From Podarcis cretensis (Eukaryota): a DNA stretch of 64,000 nt. The number at the start of each line of letters is the position of its first letter. The first letter of the stretch is position 1. Where the stretch lies: NCBI GenBank assembly GCA_951804945.1, contig OX638163.1, positions 47,926,001-47,990,000 on the forward strand, read 5' to 3'. Below are positions 3,162 through 61,364 of the stretch, one piece after another. The notes beneath the pieces are model-generated. The model saw nothing but the letters and a program-made list of their open reading frames with translations, did no database searches and was not told the DNA's origin. The position numbers and the translations under genes were made by a program.

Positions 3162-3521
3162 GGGACGCAGGTGGCGCTGTGGGTTAAAGCCTCAGCGCCT
3201 AGGACTTGCCGATCGAAAGGTTGGCGGTTCGAATCCCTGCGGCGGGGTGCGCTCCCGCTGCTCGGTCCCAGCGCCTGCCAACCTAGCAGTTCGAAAGCAC
3301 CTCCGGGTGCAAGTAGATAAATAGGGACCGCTTACCAGTGGGAAGGTAAACGGCGTTTCCGTGTGCGGCTCTGGCTCGCCAGAGCAGCGATGTCACGCTG
3401 GCCACGTGACCCGGAAGTGTCTCCGGACAGCGCTGGCCCCTGGCCTCTTAAGTGAGATGGGCGCACAACCCCAGAGTCTGTCAAGACTGGCCCGTACGGG
3501 CAGGGGTACCTTTACCTTTAC
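3162..3521 (+). mobile_element. Sauria SINE
   Basis: GGGACGCAGGTGGCGCTGTGGGTTAAA head, GGTTCGAATCC B box, (ACCTTT)n tail. Confidence 0.92.
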
Positions 3522-5045
3522 TTTTTAATACCACTTCAAAAAGCTGTGGCTCCCCCCAAAATAATTAAGGAGCTGTCGTTTGCTTAGAGTTGTTAGGTGG
3601 CTATTCTCCCTTGTCCCCTTCCCGAGATACATTCCCACAGTGCCCTGGGGAAAGGGATTGATTGTTAAACTTATCTGGAAACTGTAGCTCTGGGAGGGTA
3701 ATAGGGTCTCCTAACAACTCACCACACCCTTAGCAAACTACAGCTCCCAGAATTCTTTGGCTGTTCAAAGTGGTATCATAGTGCTTCAGAGTAACGGTAT
3801 GAAGCTGGCTTTGGAGTAGGACAGTGTCTTATCTTCTAGCAAAGCCTGTTTATTTATTTATTTCAGTGACATAGCAGAAGTTCCTGGTGGAAGGGACGAA
3901 CAACTGGGTTGCAACCAGGCGCTGTACTTAGGAACCAGCCTGGCAAATGAGTCCTTGGTGGACTGGGAATTCTCCTTGGCTGAGATCAGGAAAGCAAGGG
4001 TAGCTTGCAAACAAGTTGTGCTGAAAGAGCCTTGGAGCATTCCCTAAATGGCAATGTCTTCTAAAGCAGCTTAGAATTTCAGGTAAAATAAGGGAGATAC
4101 AAATCTCCAGAGGTAATTATTTTTAATTTCAGCTGATTAACTGCACTCCAAAGAGCTGGCAAGAGCCAAAGCACAGACCAGCCTAGGGAAAAGCTTAAAA
4201 AGACCTAGCCATTCTGCAGATAAATGCCTCATTTCTTTGCCCTGCCAAAAGCAAAATAATAATAAAATACATTTTTCTATCTTATTTTGATGCACAGTTC
4301 AATTTATGAACATAGCTTGTAAGAGAAAGGAGCAAAATCTGGAGCTAAGACATTTTCTAACTTCAGTGCACCCCTGCACGGATTCTGGTAATTTTTCAGA
4401 GGGTTACTGCGAGTGGTTCAGCTTTGCTTATAAACTTTCAGTGTTCTTTCCAATGTTAGTCCTGCTTAGAAGAGACCTATTATAGTTAACACAGGTGGCT
4501 AACTTGGGTTCATTCATTCCAACAGGTCTACTTCAAGTAGCACTAGCATTGCATACCATAGTGTACTTACACCCAGAAGATGTATTCTAAGGGGTGGATG
4601 TGGCCCTCAACATTTCTCCCTTTGGCCCTGGGAACTGTCTCAAGGCCATGCCCTTCCCTGCCCCCATTTGTTTTTGTTTTTTTTCCATGGCTGGAATGTA
4701 CCCTTGAACACTGATCATTTCTCTTGCTTGCCTGTATATAAGAATAGAGAAGGGCATGTGAATGTGTGTATAAACAGCCCAGTACATAATTGTAAAAATT
4801 ACACACATTGCTGTGCCCATGTCTGCCTATGGCTATGCCCACCACTGTCATGGGACTCTCAGAAAGTTGCCTATAAGGGAATGTTGCCCTTGGGCAGAGT
4901 AGGGTAAATAGTATTGTTGCATGCCACACCAATCTCCAAGCAGTGCAAGATTCCATGTGTTCTGGGTGCTTACACAGGTTTGTGTTTCCTTCGTGAATGA
5001 GGCTCAGCAGAGACTGTAGTGCCTTTAGGATATATTGCTTATATA

Positions 5046-5397
5046 AAAAGGTAAAGGGACCTCTGACCATTAGGTCCAGTCGTGACCGACTCTGGGGTTG
5101 CAGCACTCATCTCGCTTTATTGGCCGAGGGAGCCGGCATACAGCTTCCGGGTCATGTGGCCAGCATGACTAAGCCGCTTCTGGCACACCAGAGCAGCGCA
5201 TGGAAACACCGTTTACCTTCCTGCCAGAGCGGTACCTATTTATCTACTTGCACTTGGACGTGCTTTTGAACTGCTAGGTTGGCAGGAGCAGGAACTGAAC
5301 AATGGGAGCTCACCCCGTCACGGGGATTCGAAACGCCGACCTTCTGATTGGCAAGTCCTAGACTCTGTGGTTTAACCCACAGCGCCACCCGCGTCCC
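5046..5397 (-). mobile_element. Sauria SINE
   Basis: Full length. 12-bp TSD ATTGCTTATATA at 5034-5045 and 5399-5410. Confidence 0.93.
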
Positions 5398-6482
5398 AAT
5401 TGCTTATATACCCCTATATATAATCTGAGTTTATGGTGGATAACAGCCCAGAAGGTCTTGCTTTTCCCATAGGCACAAGCAGGAATCAAGCATGGCTCTC
5501 CCTCTCTGGCTTCTGCCTGCTTTTAACTTCCTGCTCTCTCACACACTCAGCTCTGGCTATTGTCTTTCTCACTGCCATCCAGGTGAGGGGAGGGAGCCCA
5601 CCCACCCACACCCAAGTGTCTTCTGGCACAGAGCAGCTTCCTTTGTCAGACTAATGACCATGCTTAAGTGGTAACAATGACCGTTGTCTGACTAATTCAA
5701 CAAATGAATCCTCGGTTAGATTTTTAACCTTTGCTGGATTCAGGAACACAGGAATTACAAGGGACTCAGGCATCATGCAAGCTAACCTTCCAAACTCACA
5801 GCAATATTCTAAATGGGGACTGACTTCCTGTTATGCAGGTTGTGGGTGCAGCAAGAGGAGGAGGAAGCAAGCTAGCACCACCAGGCAACTGAACATACCA
5901 TACCATGCAGCATAGGAATCTCTTTATAGCCACCTACATCAGGTGTTTATGGGCCCTGGAACTGCACAGTAGAAGGAGGAGGCCAGTGCTCTGGATGTGG
6001 GCTTTCTGGGTGTGTCTGGTTGTCCCACTACAGAAAACAGGACACTGAGATAATGGGACCCTTGATGGGATCTCTTTTCATGACAGGAAGCAAGAGCAGG
6101 TGAGATAGACCTGAGAGCAGCATGTTCAGATGTCTTTAGACAAGATGGAAACTCCTTTGGAAATATCTTTGTGCCTTTCAAACATCTTCCAAGAAGCACC
6201 CCTGGGGAATCAGGCTCTTAGGCTAGCATTGTTTTTTAAACTTTTTTTTTTAGATTTTTGAGTAATGTACAGTGGGAAAACTTCACAGGAAGATCAGAGA
6301 ATTATGGCACAAAAATGGTAGTTAAGAGGTGAATTATTTTGCTGCAATTCTACACGCATGTACAAAATCCTTTCATGTAGGACTGTTTCTGGACTTCTTG
6401 CTTAACAGAAGAAGCTGGCATTGTCTTGATAAGCTTATGGACTTCACAATCTCAATTTTATTTCTACCACACCATTAACGGC

Positions 6483-7110: not shown

Positions 7111-8576
7111 TTTTTTAAAACAACAACAATATTTTTATTGATTTTCCATTTTTAACAATTTTATAACATCATAACACTTTTTATAAAATCTTCTGGTTTT
7201 CTTATAACACATTATTATCTCCACACATTTATAACATCTCAGTTCTATATATATCTTAACTTATTAACCAACCTTAATCACAAATAGAATCTTTCTTCTT
7301 TTAAACGTTATGGCTTTTATCTCAGTCCTGCTAGTGTCTCTATAAGTGTACAATGATTCTCAATGTATTGTATAAATTTACTCCACTGTCTCTGGAACGC
7401 TTGGTCGCTCTGGTTTTGAATTTTCCCGGTCAGCTTTGCCAGTTCCACATAGTCCATCATCTTCATCTGCCATTCTTCAACCGTTGGTAACTCCTGCTGT
7501 TTTCATTTTTGGCCTGTTAAGGTTCTAGCTGCCGTTGTGGCATATATAAACAGTTTTTGATCTACTTTTGATATTTCCACTCCTATCATTCCCAGCAAGA
7601 ACGCTTCTGTTTTTGGGGGGAAGGCGTACCTAAACATTTTTTTTTAATTCATTGTAAATACTTTCCCAAAATACTTTAACTTTATCACAGGTCCACCACA
7701 TATGATAAAAATCTCCTTCTTTAACATTACATTTCCAACAATTCTTATTTCTCATTTTTGGTAATTTAGTTGGTGTCTAGTACCATCTATACATCATTTT
7801 CATTATATTTTCTTTCAATGCCATACATGCGCTGAATTTCATTCCAACATTCCATAATTTTGACCAGTTTTCAAATTGAATATTGTGCCCAATATCTTTT
7901 GCCTATTTTATCATTACTTCCTTAACCTCTTCCTCTTTTGTATACCATTCCAAAAGTAAATCATACATTTTCGATAATATTTTTGTTTTACCTTCCAACA
8001 GATCGGTTTTTAGCTTCAATCTAAAGTCTCAGAGCCATTCTTACTTTTATCTTTTTAAAATATATCATAGAATCATAGAATCATAGAGTTGGAAGAGACC
8101 ACAAGAGCCATCAAGTCCAACCCCCTGCCAAGCAGGAAAATATCATTTATTTGATGATATTGCAACCAACCTGTTAACTTATCACTCGTTTCATCATATG
8201 GCTTCATTTTTAACTCATTATCCATTTCTGTTAGCAACTCCCCATATGTAGGCCAATTACCTTTTATGTTTAATATTTTAACTGATATTGCTTCTACTGG
8301 TGATATCCAACATGGTGTTTTCCGCTCTAATAGATCTTTGTATCTTGTCCATACCTCATAAAGTGGTTTTCTTATAGCGTAGTTCAAAAAACCTCTATGA
8401 ACTTTAACTTTGTCATACTGTAGATATGCATGCCACCCGAATCTGTTGCCACAACCTTCTAAATCCAATACATCTGTATTTTCTAATTTCATCCAATCCC
8501 TTAGCCAGGTCAGGCAGGACACTTCATAGTATATCTTTAAGTCTGGCAATAAGAATCCACCCCTTTCTTTTTTGTC
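7111..8576 (-). mobile_element. 5'-truncated L1 (ORF2 C-terminus and 3' UTR)
   Basis: Peptide PDLKIYYE...FGWHAYL is homologous to the ORF2 at 59366-60652. 17-bp TSD CTGTCT(A/G)CTAACTTTCA at 7094-7110 and 8577-8593. Confidence 0.9.
8064..8139 (-). mobile_element. Very short CR1 3' end nested in the L1
   Basis: (ATCATAGA)n tail plus sequence nearly identical to the reverse complement of the CR1 3' end at 6797-6871. Confidence 0.85.
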
Positions 8577-55080: not shown

Positions 55081-55174
55081 TCAAAGCCCCAGCCCAGAAT
55101 GTGGAGGCCATGTTTTCAAGGTTTGTGGTCATAACTTCAAGCTGCTCTCATGGAAACTGACCTGACCGCTAGAG
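55081..55174 (+). repeat. Left copy of 94-bp L1 target-site duplication
   Basis: Matches 61271-61364 at 90 of 94 positions. Confidence 0.9.
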
Positions 55175-56112
55175 GGACTTCTGGGTTGGCGCCTCCGGTA
55201 ATGGCAGAATTCCTCTGATCGGGAGGAATTTGCCCCATGGGAATTGGGTCTGGCTGCCATGGCGAAGGCGGAGACCCGCAAAAAAATCACAGGTGGGAGA
55301 AGCCTGTGAGCATGGGATTCGGTGGGCACCTTTTGCGCCTCCCTTACTCACGGGGAAACCCAGTTTCGGGGGTCCAGAGCGACGTGAGGTGAGCGGCGCG
55401 GTGCTTTGAATCGACTGCTTCTTCCACGGAGCGAAGCCGCATAGCTGTTGCCAGAGAGCACTGACTTTTTTCTGTGTACAATTTGAATCTAAAGTAACTA
55501 CCCGTGAGTATAGTTGAGGCGGCAGAACTAGATTTTTAAAAGTTTAACTTGGTATCGTAACGGGGAGGTTCAATACAGGAAGTCCACCTTCCCCTTTTGT
55601 AAATAGACTGAAGCAATGAGGCTGCAAGTTGAAGTCTTGGAAAGCCTATTGTAAAAGATTGAATCTCCATCTGTAAAGAACATTAAATCCCCCACCCCTT
55701 GGAGGCAGGAGAAGAGGGGGGGGAGAGTTGTGGACTAAATACGCCTGCAGAAGAGAGCGAAGAGTGTTAAAATACCGCCGCTCGGACCCTGGAAATGGGC
55801 TGCTAGCAGGACTGACGCTTTTTGACAGCACTTAGAACGTTTATTGACAGTTAGCTACAAGAGAAATACATTGTTTCTACTGTCTCCGGTTGCTTTTAAA
55901 AAGAAGTAAAAGTAACTGAAAATTGATACCAACTTCGGATTCTTTGAACTGCGCTTAAAAGAGGACACTATTGATTAATACAAATTGAAACTGTTTTCCC
56001 CTAGTGGAAGCCTTTGAGACTGGTTGTTTTATAAGAGCTGGGCTAGGGGAATTTCCAGCTGCAAGATAAAAAACTGTGAGACTCTGGGACTGACCTTGAA
56101 TTCTTAAGTGTT

Positions 56113-57634
56113 ATGGCAAATGGAAAGGAAAAAACAGACCAGCAAACCGCAGAAAAAATATTAAGGTCTGGGAGGACTTTGCAGCAACCCAGGAGAGGTT
56201 CAACACCAGGTCTCCCTGCTTCTTCTGCGGCTACTTCTGTATCAGTTCACTCAAAATCAAGAGGAATGTCGACAGAAGAAACCTTGGCGATTGCATTAAG
56301 TAAGATAAATGATTCACTGGAACAGCTTAACAAGAAAACAGACACGATAAATGTGAAAGTGGATGCTGCAACTACTAAAATTGATTTAAATACAGAAAGT
56401 ATAAATGATCTGGGACAAAAGGTGAATATCAATACAGAAACCATCCAGAAATTGATACAGGAATCTACTTTGATACGGCAGACTGCGGAAGAAGCCAGGG
56501 TGAAAGCTGTTGCTGCTGAATGTAAAGTAATAGAACTTGAGACAGAGAGAGTCCCAGCCCTACAGAGGAAACTTGAGGAACATAAGTTGACACTTGCTAT
56601 GATTGAACTTAAAGAAAAACAGACGAATTTGAGGATCAGAGCCCTACCTGAATTTGAGAAGGAAAGTTTGACAGATTTTCTCACACAGGAATTTGCTGAC
56701 TTTTGGGACTTGGATTTTGGCCAAGAAGAGTTTAGAATTGTGAGGGCCTTTAGACTTGGAAGAGGAGGGAAAAAAGAGAAGAACAGAATAAGAGATTGCT
56801 TGATTACCCTTCGAACGAAAGAAGAGAGAGATAGAATATTGGGCTGGCACTATCAGAAGAACCTAGAAGTACAATGGTCAAGAGTGTAGCTTCATTTGGT
56901 GCATAAATACCTACAATTAGGAATTTCTCTCCTTGTGATTGAATTTCAATTGCAATGAATCTTCCTTGGTCATCTTTAAATATGAATTTCGGTGATAGGC
57001 TCTCCTTTGCATAAAGGGCCACTCCTCTTTTTTTAACTTTATCTGATGAAATAAATTCTTGGCCCAGTCTTTTATTACTCAATATCTTCCTATGTAGCCT
57101 TATCACATGTGTTTCTTGTAAGCAAATCAAGTCCAAATGTTCTTTTTTCAATAAATGAAAGACTCTCTGCCTTTTTTCCGGGGAATTCAGTCCATTCACA
57201 TTCCAGCTCAAAACCTGCAAGAGTGGAAATTTTTAAAGACGTCCCGAAATACCTTTTGGATCTAAGGTCTAACTATAGAGATCTGGTAGCCCTGCTGAGA
57301 AGGAACAAAATTATCTTTAGGTGGGAGTTTCCCCAAGGTCTATCTTTCAGCTTCAAAGGAAGGAAAATAAAAATAAGATCAGTAGAAGATAAAGTTTTTG
57401 GATAAATACGAAGAAGATCTGCAGAAAGGACTTGGAAAAGAGTCAGAAGTAACGGATAGAAGATCACCAGATAGAGGAATAGAGCAAAGAGCATTGGATA
57501 GAGGATCACCAAATAAGGGAATATTGGATATATCAACATTATCCTTTGGACTGGATTGCCCAGTGAACGTGCCACCACTACCACCAACAGAAGAAGAGCA
57601 AGCATTGGGTGCAGTTGGAGGAATATCAGCGTAA
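56113..57634 (+). pseudogene. L1 ORF1 (coiled coil and RRM/CTD), disrupted
   Basis: Heptad-rich N-half, then NLRIRALPE, RAFRLG, IFKDVP and FRWEFPQGL motifs. Interrupted by the inverted insert 56887-57217 and a frameshift near 57395. Confidence 0.88.
56887..57217 (-). pseudogene. Inverted, displaced N-terminal endonuclease segment of the same L1 ORF2
   Basis: Minus-strand peptide QVLSWNVNGLNSPEKR...LICLQETH...GIYAPNE (APE motifs). The same segment is missing at the ORF2 start (57657/57658). Confidence 0.92.
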
Positions 57635-57638
57635 ATAC

Positions 57639-60600
57639 ATGATGGCATTGCAGGTTTCAAGAAGCTACATGATACTTTGATGGACTATATGGACTATAAT
57701 ATGATTTTAATGGGAGACATGAATGGAGTGGTGTCTACAAATATGGACAAGGCACAGAGACAGGTAGTCACCAAAGATTGTAGACTACCTAAAACTTTCT
57801 TTGACATGACTGATAATATGGATTTAGTTGACATTTGGAGAGTGAAGAACCCAATGGGAAGAGAGGGAACTTTCTTCTCTGAGGCAAAAATGACATGGAC
57901 AAGAATTGATCAAATTTGGGTAACTAGGGGATTGGTTCCGAAGATCAGCAAAGTGGAGATCTGCCTCAAAACTTGTTCTGACCATAATGCTGTGAAGATG
58001 GAAATGAAATTGATGCCAACTAGCTCCTTTAGATGGAGGATGAATGATACATTGTTTAGGAATTAAGAGGTGACCAAGAAGGCCCAAAAAACTCTAAGAG
58101 ACTATTTTGAAATAAATATGAATACTACAGTGGAAAAAAGAGTAATTTGGAACGCAAGCAAAGCAGTTATGAGGGGATTCCTAATACAACAGAATGCAAT
58201 TAAGAAGAGAACTCAGAATGAAAAAAAGGATAAAATCCTGGGAAAAATAGAGGAAGGAGAGAAGAAACAGAGCAAAACCAAAGTCACAGGAGATTCTGAA
58301 AGAGATAAAGTTATACCAAGTACAATATACAAAGCTGATGAATCAGGAAATAGAATGGAAGATTAAACAGATGAGGCAAAAGACATTTGAATCGGCAAAT
58401 AAGTGTGGAAAATTATTAGCCTGGCAAATGAAAAAAAGACAAAAACTAAATACTATTACGAATTTGGAAGTGGAAGGAAAGAATATACAGAACCCAGTGG
58501 AGATCAGGAAGTGTTTTCAGAGATATTTTAAACAACTTTATACACAGGAGAAGCAGAAAGAAATGGACGTTGATCGATTTTTGAAAATAAATGGACTACA
58601 CAAAATCTCCCAGGAAAAACAGCTAATGTTGAATTACAAAATAATGGATCAGGAGGTGGAAGGGGCTATCCAGAACATGCAATTAGGTAAATCTCCAGGA
58701 CCAGATGGTTTGACTTCAAGATATTACAGATCTTTGAAAGAATGGCTAATACAACCATTGAAGGAAGTCTGCAATGAAATATTGGAAGGGAGAAAGGCAC
58801 CAGAGTCGTGGAAGGAAGCTTAAATTACACTTATACCAAAAACAGAGACTGAAAAGACACAGCTTAAGAATTACCGCCCCATATCGCTGCTTAATGTGGA
58901 TTACAAAATTTTCGCAGATATTTTGGCTAAAATATTTAAAAAGGTGTTAGTAGAAGAAATTCATAAAGAGGAAGCGGGCTTTCTCCCGGGCAGACACTTG
59001 TCTGACAACACGAGGAATATAATTAATATCCTAGAAAAATTACAAGTGAATATCAATATCAAGGCAGTTTTGATATTTGTAGACGCAGAGAAAGCCTTTG
59101 ACAACATTTCTTAGAGTTTCATGAAGAAGAATCTACAGGGAATTGGGGTAGGCCAAGGTTTTGAAAATGGTATAGGTGCAATTTACTCACAACAAAAGGC
59201 AAAACTAATTGTGAACAATGTGGTGACAGAAGAGTTTAAGATTGAGAAAGGGACACGACAAGGTTGCCCAATCTCTCCATTGCTCTTTATATCGGTCCTT
59301 GAGGTTTTGTTAAATATGATTAGAAAGGACCAAGAGAAAAGTTTCAGGAAGAGACAGGATTAACATTGGTTAAGAAAGTGAAATATTTAGGGGTTAATAT
59401 GACAGCCAAAAATGTGAATTTATTTAAGGAAAATTATGAAAAATGTTGGACTGAAGTGAAAAAGGATTTAGAAATATCATTGTTAGGCCGAATTGCTGTG
59501 ATAAAAATGAATGTGCTGCCAAGGATGTTGTTTTTGTTTCAAACATTGCAAATTTTGGATAAGATGGATTGTTTCAAGAAGTGGCAGAAAGATATTTCCA
59601 GATTTGTTTGGCAGGGCAAGAAACCTCGAATAAAATTTAAGATATTAACTGATGCTAAAGAAAGAGGTGGATTTGCCCTGCCAGACCTTAAACTATATTA
59701 TGAATCAGCTGCTCTTTGCTGGCTGAGAGAATGGCTGCTTCTTGAAAACACTGATGTGTTGGACTTAGAAGGTTCTAATAATGTATTTGGTTGGCATGCA
59801 TATTTGTGGTATGATAAGGTAAAAGCACACAAGGCGTTTAAAAATCATATTGTTAGGAAAGCATTGTTTAATGTTTGGATAAGATATAAGGATTTGTTAG
59901 AAAAGAAAACCCCAAGATGGTTGTCACCAATGGAAGCGAAGGCACAGAAAAAACTCAATATGGAGGCCAAATGGCCGAAATATTGGGAAATTTTGGAACA
60001 AGATGGAGACAGACTAAAATTGCAGAGTTTTGAAAAATTGAAAAATAAAGTGCGAGATTGGCTTCATTATTATCAAATAATGGAGGCATATAATTCGGAC
60101 AAAAAAGTTGGCTTCCAGGTGGAAAAATCAATATTGGAAACAGAATTGTTGGATCCAAAAACTAAGCATTTGTCAAGAATGTATAACTTGTTGCTGAAAT
60201 GGAACACTCAAGATGAAATGGTGAAATCAGTTATGATTAAATGGGCACAAGATGCTGGACATAACATAATGATGGCTGACTGGGAACAGTTATGGACCAC
60301 AGGTATGAAATTTACGGCATGTAATGCCCTAAGAGAAAATTTAATGAAAATGATTTACAGGTGGTACATGACAGCAGTCAAGCTTGCAAAAATTTACCAT
60401 TTGCCCGATAATAAATGTTGGAAATGTAATGAGATTGAAGGTACATTCTTTCACCTTTGGTGGACATGCCCAAGGATTAAGACATTCTGGGAGATGATTT
60501 ATAATGAAATGAAAAAGGTATTTAAATATACCTTCCTGAAGAAACCAGAGGCCTTTCTCCTGGGCATGGTCGGCCAATTGGTGCCAAAGAAAGATAGAAC

Positions 60601-60823
60601 ATTTTTCATGTATGCAACAACAGCAGCAAGAATACTCATCGCAAAATCTTAGAAGACACAAGATTTACCCACCCGGGAAGAATGGCAGATGAAGTTGATA
60701 GACTACATGGAATTGGCGGAAATGACTGGCAGAATCCGAGACCAGGGAGAAGAGTCGGTGGAAGAAGACTGGAAAAAGTTTAAAGATTATTTACGGAATT
60801 ACTGTAAAATTAATGAATGTTAG
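57639..60823 (+). pseudogene. L1 ORF2 (APE endonuclease, reverse transcriptase, CCHC), with stops, frameshifts and deletions
   Basis: Motifs MGDMN, SDHNAV, GKSPGPDG, DAEKAFD, GTRQGCPISPLLF, YLGV and CWKC...HLWWTC. Premature stops end at 58066, 58823, 59114 and 60652. Confidence 0.93.
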
Positions 60824-61140
60824 GAAAATGTTGGAATGAAGTTATATGGCTTTAGTAGAAATGTTATAAGGAATTAAGGATAAATAGATTAATAGAGTAT
60901 TAAAGGAAAAATAAGGTTAGAATGTGTTAAGATAACTATAAGATTAAAAATAGAGGAAGATGGAAAGGAATTGCTGAAAAAATTAATAGAAGTGGAATAC
61001 AAAAAGGGAGGTGTGAGGAGGTCGCGGAAACAAGTAAATGAAAGATAAGTTATTGAAAGTATTTGATGTGTTTTAAATTGTGTTTGTTTTGTTTTGTTAG
61101 TTTAATGTTAGTGTTTTGTTAGTGTAATGTAGTGGTTTTT

Positions 61141-61205
61141 TTGTATTGTATTGTATTGTATTGTATTGTATTGTGTTGTATTGTGTTGTATTGTGTTGTA
61201 TTGTA
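61141..61205. repeat. (TTGTA/TTGTG)n pentamer repeat in the L1 3' UTR
   Basis: Direct reading. Confidence 0.85.
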
Positions 61206-61270
61206 TGTTTTTTTTCCCTGTAGTGTCTAAATTGTTGGAAAAGGTAATAAATATTATTTTAAAAAAAAAA

Positions 61271-61364
61271 TCAAAGCCCCAGCCCAGAACGTGGAGGCCA
61301 TGTTTTCAAGGTTTGTGGTCATAACTTCGAGCTGCATTCATGGAAACTGACCTGACCGCTAGAG
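61271..61364 (+). repeat. Right copy of 94-bp L1 target-site duplication
   Basis: Starts directly after the poly(A); matches 55081-55174. Confidence 0.9.

Follow-up and report, generated by a model that had tools for sequence, protein, structure and literature searches.

An inverted piece of the ORF2 endonuclease region lies within ORF1 of a full-length L1-type element in Podarcis cretensis

A full-length L1-type element in a 64,000-nucleotide stretch of the Podarcis cretensis genome (assembly GCA_951804945.1, contig OX638163.1, positions 47,926,001 to 47,990,000 of the forward strand; the whole stretch is called the window and its own numbering is used below) carries an internal rearrangement. 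A 336-base piece of open reading frame 2 (ORF2) has been flipped and relocated ~440 bases upstream, into ORF1. Aligned to its closest sister copy, L031, which served as the reference for segment coordinates, the element reads A, inverted C, B, D, where the family order is A-B-C-D (Table 1). The rearrangement is real, unique and unpropagated. The explanation that we prefer, at a probability of about 0.45, is that the copy suffered three staggered breaks, likely made by the ORF2 protein (ORF2p) around the time of integration, and that the pieces were rejoined in the wrong order.

Segment order and origin of the inverted piece

The element lies on the plus strand at 55175–61270, ends in a short poly(A) and has direct repeats at both flanks. 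Its ORF2 matches the Pfam families PF03372 Exo_endo_phos (AP-type endonuclease) and PF00078 RVT_1 (reverse transcriptase), with E values given in Table 1. The layout is that of the L1 clade, comprising a 5' untranslated region (UTR), ORF1, ORF2, a 3' UTR, poly(A) and a target-site duplication (TSD) of variable length, with no long terminal repeats (LTRs). By its endonuclease and reverse transcriptase domains and its architecture this is an L1-clade non-LTR retrotransposon, the clade label itself following from the architecture and from motifs that we take to be characteristic. The Pfam scan returned no match for ORF1, which is therefore named for its position in the element; it is 394–395 amino acids long in the copies L047 and L042.

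Table 1. Segments of the rearranged element, its breakpoints and its target-site duplication (window coordinates).
Feature	Position	Strand	Remarks
TSD of the whole L1, 5' copy, 94 bp	55081..55174	+	96% identical to 61271-61364
Segment A (intact L1 5' end: 5' UTR and ORF1 codons 1-258, ATG at 56113, stop newly made by the insert)	55175..56886	+	L031 1-1706 at 96%; open frame 56080-56889
Breakpoint x overlap, copy 1 (CAAGAGTG)	56879..56886	+	ends in 2 nt of microhomology to the insert; single copy in the 78/135 copies reading through x
Segment C (ORF2 endonuclease domain, N-terminal half, inverted)	56885..57220 (336 bp with microhomologies; 56887-57217 unambiguous)	-	L031 2134-2491 minus 23 bp; PF03372 E=5e-10
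Fourth junction: 23-bp deletion in insert C at GAAG microhomology (4 nt)	56890..56893	-	
Breakpoint x overlap, copy 2 (CAAGAGTG)	57218..57225	+	begins with 3 nt of microhomology to the insert
Segment B (ORF1 3' part, spacer, ORF2 start at 57639)	57218..57658	+	L031 1699-2147 at 96%; 5-bp deletion near 57389-57394
Breakpoint y1 overlap, 10-11 nt	57648..57658	+	same bases also at insert start
Donor junction with the breakpoint y2 overlap (14 nt provided the 23-bp deletion arose separately)	57656..57669	+	
Segment D (remaining ORF2, broken, with reverse transcriptase domain; 3' UTR; short poly(A))	57656..61270	+	L031 2478 onward; PF00078 E=2e-12 at 58824-59111
TSD of the whole L1, 3' copy, 94 bp	61271..61364	+	only these two genome matches

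An earlier, sequence-only reading of the window had proposed that an endonuclease segment was cut out of ORF2 and re-inserted, inverted, inside ORF1 of the same element. This is borne out by the minus strand of 56888–57217, which translates to QVLSWNVNGL...IYAPNEA, by the PF03372 match and by variants of the L031 lineage. The ~330 bp then given for the piece correspond to its unambiguous part, but the full extent includes the flanking microhomologies, and the piece also has an internal 23-bp deletion. ORF2 starts and then jumps as had been described: its frame is lost after the donor junction and runs into stops, with additional stops and deletions, and other copies carry the segment in sense between the ORF2 start and the motif KKLH. 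The expectation that ORF1 would read correctly once the insert was removed holds at the insertion site, across which the frame is kept, but a separate 5-bp deletion in segment B frameshifts it.

The family sample consisted of 97 of 213 5'-intact matches (among the matches listed, contigs C1–C7) and 39 further loci, and its counts are not genome totals; L112, a duplicate of L039, was excluded from the comparison of read-through and variants, which covered 135 fetched copies. The order A-inverted C-B-D is found in 0 of these 135. The three breakpoints (x at the insertion site, y1 and y2 at the ends of the donor segment) are read through colinearly in one alignment in 31 copies, and individually in 78 (x), 41 (y1) and 39 (y2); in other copies the region is missing or carries different indels. 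The 24-mers spanning the three main junctions have one genome match each with up to 2 mismatches allowed. For the fourth junction, within the insert, there is one exact genome match, and the three matches with one mismatch are not L1. The earlier question of a unique or a propagated rearrangement is thereby answered: with each junction unique in the assembly, a propagated L1 subfamily or non-autonomous derivative was rejected.

The proposed same-element origin was examined by looking for an insert that was more diverged or belonged to another subfamily. Segment C diverges from L031 by 1.9%, which is not above its neighbouring segments, and has two rare derived variants in common with it. L031 also has more of the window's non-CpG variants in common with it than any other copy in every segment except 58660–59330, and the base seen at the donor junction (y2) is shared by L031 only, among 34 copies. 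Because the derived variants of C are shared with the same sister copy as those of A, B and D, an origin of C in another L1 subfamily was rejected. The exceptional interval, 58660–59330, has the highest private divergence (1.64%); gene conversion in either copy is possible there.

Breakpoints, junctions and the target-site duplication

All three breakpoints were used twice, with overlaps of 8 nt at x, 10–11 nt at y1 and 14 nt at y2. The 8-bp duplication CAAGAGTG at x lies where the sequence-only reading had placed it. That reading had also regarded the retained ends of the inverted piece, TTGCAGGTTT and GAAGCTACA, as microhomology at every breakpoint; some microhomology is indeed present at every junction, but these ends of 9–10 nt are overlaps, and the true microhomology is 2–4 bases long and located at the overlap tips. 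It consists of TG (2), CAA (3) and TTC or TT (2–3) at the main junctions, and of GAAG (4) at the internal deletion, a fourth junction that exists because the insert corresponds to L031 2134–2491 minus 23 bp. The would-be 3' tips pair at each main junction (TG/CA, CAA/TTG and TTC/GAA), and 2–3 nt of microhomology at all three has p ~0.001 when equal base frequencies are assumed. Direct inspection of the sequence found no extra bases at the junctions. The ends of the insert agree with those of the donor deletion to within 11–14 nt, and 14 bases of family sequence are missing from both the donor and the insert sites.

Three staggered breaks followed by wrong-order rejoining would, as a single event, account for the coincident ends, the overlaps and the microhomology at their tips. 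The L1 copy would have suffered the three breaks within 800 bases of its DNA, each probably with a stagger that left an 8–14 base 3' overhang, and the pieces would have been rejoined wrongly through pairings of 2–3 bases at the overhang tips. The overlaps would represent these 3' overhangs filled in; if so, every junction is formed by two annealed overhang tips, and the insert ends match the donor deletion ends because C was physically excised. The 23-bp deletion in C would be a separate microhomology deletion, like others in this copy. The probable agent is the L1 ORF2p endonuclease, acting during or soon after the copy's own, evidently atypical, integration. In size, the overlaps fall in or slightly under the TSD range of the family, and ORF2p-made breaks are described with TSD-like duplications of 14–16 bp between reciprocal breakpoints and with multi-way exchanges, whereas nuclease or radiation breaks rarely show such duplications (10.1101/2024.12.14.628481).

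The 94-bp TSD, which the earlier reading had not included, bears on the integration itself. In a survey of 120 rows, both ends were present in 104 and a TSD was called in 92 (L082, a duplicate of L081, is included in this count). The 94-bp duplication is the longest of the 92, of which 90 are 9–20 bp and one is 42 bp. Its two copies have four differences, made up of two CpG-type changes and one doublet, and with two matches in the genome it was rejected as a dispersed repeat. Long TSDs have been speculated to arise from distant second nicks or persistent intermediates (PMC5223499). The length suggests that integration was slow or abnormal, and ORF2p would then be at the site. The 42-bp call, the second longest, belongs to L074 (~657–698 and 3195–3236; coordinates within other copies are in L1 sense), where it lies at the head of a SINE-like (short interspersed element) sequence and is preceded by a 12-nt partial repeat.

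We then have the nick sites to consider. An endonuclease target-site matrix was built from 82 family TSDs (L082 excluded), and the breakpoints were ranked against L1 positions. With the shift window fixed by the microhomology ambiguity, the second form of the test, p was 0.013–0.037 for x, 0.028–0.032 for y2 and 0.12–0.45 for y1, the last not significant. Breakpoints x and y2 are within the top 1–4% of L1 positions (combined Fisher p 0.006–0.009, post hoc). Ordinary private-deletion breakpoints, used as a control for which positions were approximated from BLAST and the shift window differed slightly, showed no such bias (p<=0.05 in 4 of 51, median 0.48).

Several points weigh against three ORF2p-made breaks. 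The case is a single one (n=1), its timing is presumed, and the nick-site test was both post hoc and not significant at y1; in its first form (shifts -1 to +2), the test was strong at x only, moderate at y1 and placed y2 only in the top 10%. The best-scoring y2 nick would abolish the TTC microhomology, so the nick-site and microhomology supports partly exclude each other, and the 14-nt overlap holds only if the 23-bp deletion is separate. Three near-simultaneous breaks in 800 bp require an assumed local source of enzyme. No junction has poly(A) or a reverse-transcribed insert, unlike most published ORF2p exchanges (10.1101/2024.12.14.628481). Deletions and templated inserts are also common in the family, which gives post-insertion repair a high prior.

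No read across the junctions was seen in public sequencing data. Among 23 runs, none contained half of the sampled words (best 0.44), and six were examined as contigs (X1, X2, X15, X16, X18 and X19). None of the pieces listed from these six bridges an internal junction, and the joints seen have the colinear family order; as contigs drop rare variants and 25,485 further pieces exist beyond those listed, this is no evidence either way on the junctions. For the insertion as a whole, a 56-nt contig of X1 matches 55145–55200 exactly (30+26 nt, under the 31-nt bridging rule), suggesting that the insertion is present in X1. Contigs of X15 and X18 match up to 55174 and then diverge from L1, agreeing with the 5' TSD copy except at 55100, which suggests an empty site in those two runs. 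If X1 indeed has the insertion and X15 and X18 lack it, the timing of the rearrangement would become testable.

Alternative explanations and known systems

Among the alternatives, a variant of twin priming or template switching at the level of reverse transcription, during integration, is possible but doubtful. The 3' end of the top strand, carrying A, would prime on L1 RNA at y2 and copy C, while the cDNA of the first strand passes over C; the 11- and 14-nt overlaps would stem from short overshoots by strand displacement, and the cDNA ends would anneal via 3 nt. Microhomology of 2–3 nt fits priming, L067, a 5'-inverted family member, suggests that twin priming occurs in the family, and the atypical TSD of the rearranged copy also speaks for this variant. 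The sequence-only reading had set the rearrangement apart from twin priming altogether. [quoted passage not shown] All of the described cases are nevertheless 5'-deleted, with the inversion adjoining the genomic flank, whereas here a sense, full-length A comes first and has an 8-nt overlap with B. The first-strand cDNA must also finish before C is primed, yet skip C. Moreover, 5'-inverted and full-length inserts normally have TSDs of 10–20 bp (PMC2912911, PMC4245944), and the endonuclease-like sites at x and y2 are not predicted.

A two-step origin after insertion is unlikely. A break or stalled fork at x would be patched by an inverted copy of C, through polymerase theta or FoSTeS (template switching at stalled forks)/MMBIR (break-induced replication mediated by microhomology); the patch would create a 350-bp inverted repeat and hence a hairpin, whose original arm would later be skipped in replication. 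Such hairpin pairing would link the deletion ends to the insert ends, 'inverted linked gain' is known as a class of structural variant (PMC3439969), and templated inserts and microhomology deletions are seen in L044 and L046, as are several private deletions in this copy. Two rare events are required, however, and a polymerase would have to land within a duplex, since the ends of the donor deletion fall 11 and 14 nt into the predicted stem. The 94-bp TSD and the endonuclease-like sites would become coincidences. In their generic forms, template switching and microhomology-mediated repair, the mechanisms first put forward from the sequence, leave unexplained why the insert and donor-deletion ends coincide within 11–14 nt.

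The remaining explanations are far less probable. Had a different source, such as Spo11 through double cuts in meiosis, produced clustered breaks once the element was in place, and had the released fragment been ligated back in flipped form, the excision and breakpoint reuse would be accounted for with no ORF2p at the site, but Spo11 double cuts leave 2-nt 5' overhangs, which would not yield overlaps of 8–14 nt. Duplications of this kind are rare from non-ORF2p breaks (10.1101/2024.12.14.628481), and the TSD would go unexplained; we consider this origin very improbable. An assembly artefact is scarcely credible: each junction occurs once in the assembly and no read or contig was seen spanning the junctions, but the 1.5 Gb are assembled in 51 contigs, the window has no N, and four base-precise junctions with overlaps, microhomology and the same rare lineage variants are unlike a repeat collapse. 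A different L1 copy or RNA as the donor of C, with an independent donor deletion, is just as hard to credit, as L036, L031 and L037 tie at 1.9% mismatch for C but the two rare variants point to L031, which A, B and most of D also follow, and the deletion ends match the insert ends within 11–14 nt.

Compared with known systems, the rearrangement behaves as a chromoplexy on a miniature scale and, in part, as twin priming with 3' switching does. The likeness to ORF2p-induced reciprocal exchanges, inversions and chromoplexy (10.1101/2024.12.14.628481) lies in a balanced multi-break exchange with short duplications between reciprocal breakpoints, 0–3 nt of microhomology and possible endonuclease-like sites at some breakpoints. 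Unlike those events, the breaks are here confined to 800 bp inside an L1, in a germline fossil of a non-mammal for which ORF2p would be the presumed cause. A polyadenylated insert is found at no junction of this copy, and it is therefore described as working like such an exchange, not as a member of the class. With twin priming and 5'/3' switching (10.1101/2024.08.27.596794) the copy shares the succession of an inverted piece, an upstream piece that is not inverted and the 3' part, short overlaps and junction microhomology (here 2 and 3 nt). In inserts of that class the 5' end is deleted and the inversion abuts the genomic flank, whereas this copy is full length, with 1.7 kb of sense 5' sequence and a 94-bp TSD. 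As it lacks a defining feature of each class, it is assigned to neither.

Complex small structural variants (inverted linked gain, deletion plus insertion, FoSTeS/MMBIR; PMC3439969) are similar in their small inverted copy near the source, their microhomology and their adjacent micro-deletions. Unlike in templated insertion by FoSTeS/MMBIR or polymerase theta, the source is not retained here: it is removed almost exactly, at 57656–57658, which leaves the exchange close to balanced, and every breakpoint is used twice with an overlap. Polymorphic human L1s called with xTea (PMC8219666) include inversion plus deletion within one L1, at 3.7% of polymorphic L1 per person; this class is defined by alignment orientation, and a relocated internal segment in a full-length copy is not described in the accessible text. 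Complex internal L1 rearrangements are already known in kind. We found no literature description of precisely this arrangement, a full-length copy with a sense 5' part and an internal piece relocated in inverted form, in a search that did not extend to figures, preprint supplements or most subscription journals; the 81 of 3,598 inserts left unclassified in 10.1101/2024.08.27.596794 may include it.

Other lesions, related copies and implications

The sequence-only reading held that the event destroyed both ORFs at once, and this part is not fully supported. Besides the 5-bp deletion in ORF1, the copy has, in segment D, private deletions of ~195 bp at 59333–59336, ~17 bp near 59474 and 2 bp near 58268. 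These deletions make the copy dead several times over, and the rearrangement therefore cannot be named as the lesion that killed it. Across the family, 27 of 76 deletions are private.

Other copies have structural changes of their own. L044 has lost ~640 bp and gained an inverted insert of 38 bp (~3790–3827) for which the breakpoint served as template, presumably a polymerase-theta-like scar. In the endonuclease region of L046 (~3660–3740) there is a tandem insert that was templated iteratively, and the 3' UTR of the same copy holds an antisense L1 3' end (~7759–7889). L067 (~2315–2574) is 5'-inverted and has a large internal deletion, consistent with twin priming. L051 (~3968–4333) and L133 (~3514–3877) have a 365-bp SINE-like insert at the same site, 16–30 nt upstream of y2, through shared descent or a hot spot, and L092 (~3428–5676) is a full-length copy with an ORF1-only derivative nested antisense. 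L081 and L082 (C2:2.28 Mb and C2:2.44 Mb) are an identical element with the same TSD and nested inserts, 155 kb apart, and represent a segmental or assembly duplicate. Elsewhere in the window, an older, 5'-truncated L1 ORF2 fragment with 66–68% identity to L031 is found at 7439–8570 on the minus strand.

ORF1-only derivatives of ~2.2–2.5 kb make up 82 of the 97 5'-intact copies among the matches listed (C1–C7). They have a common join from L031 ~1956 to 5698/5704, TSDs of their own and several subtypes; they are found within L070–L166, with L073 (699–3170) and L083 (699–3187) as examples. They constitute a propagated 'half-L1' family. HAL1 is described only for mammals in the accessible text of PMC5753468, and no half-L1 report from reptiles was found in the literature searched.

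The rearranged element is a single inactive copy with no shown host effect. It is of value as a cleanly preserved trace of the ways in which L1 integration intermediates can be resolved, a step described as poorly defined. If the reading as three staggered cuts holds over more events, ORF2p would attack its own product, and rearrangements with TSD-like overlaps and no poly(A) would become assignable to L1 and could be screened for in any long-read assembly. More speculatively, ORF2p may cut its own fresh DNA copy at several sites during a stalled integration, with religation as a sub-kilobase 'self-chromoplexy', an extension that we regard as doubtful. Such events would be recognisable by reused breakpoints whose overlaps match TSDs in size, by endonuclease-like sites and a long TSD, and by the lack of added poly(A); if true, the extension would provide a route of self-inactivation for full-length L1.

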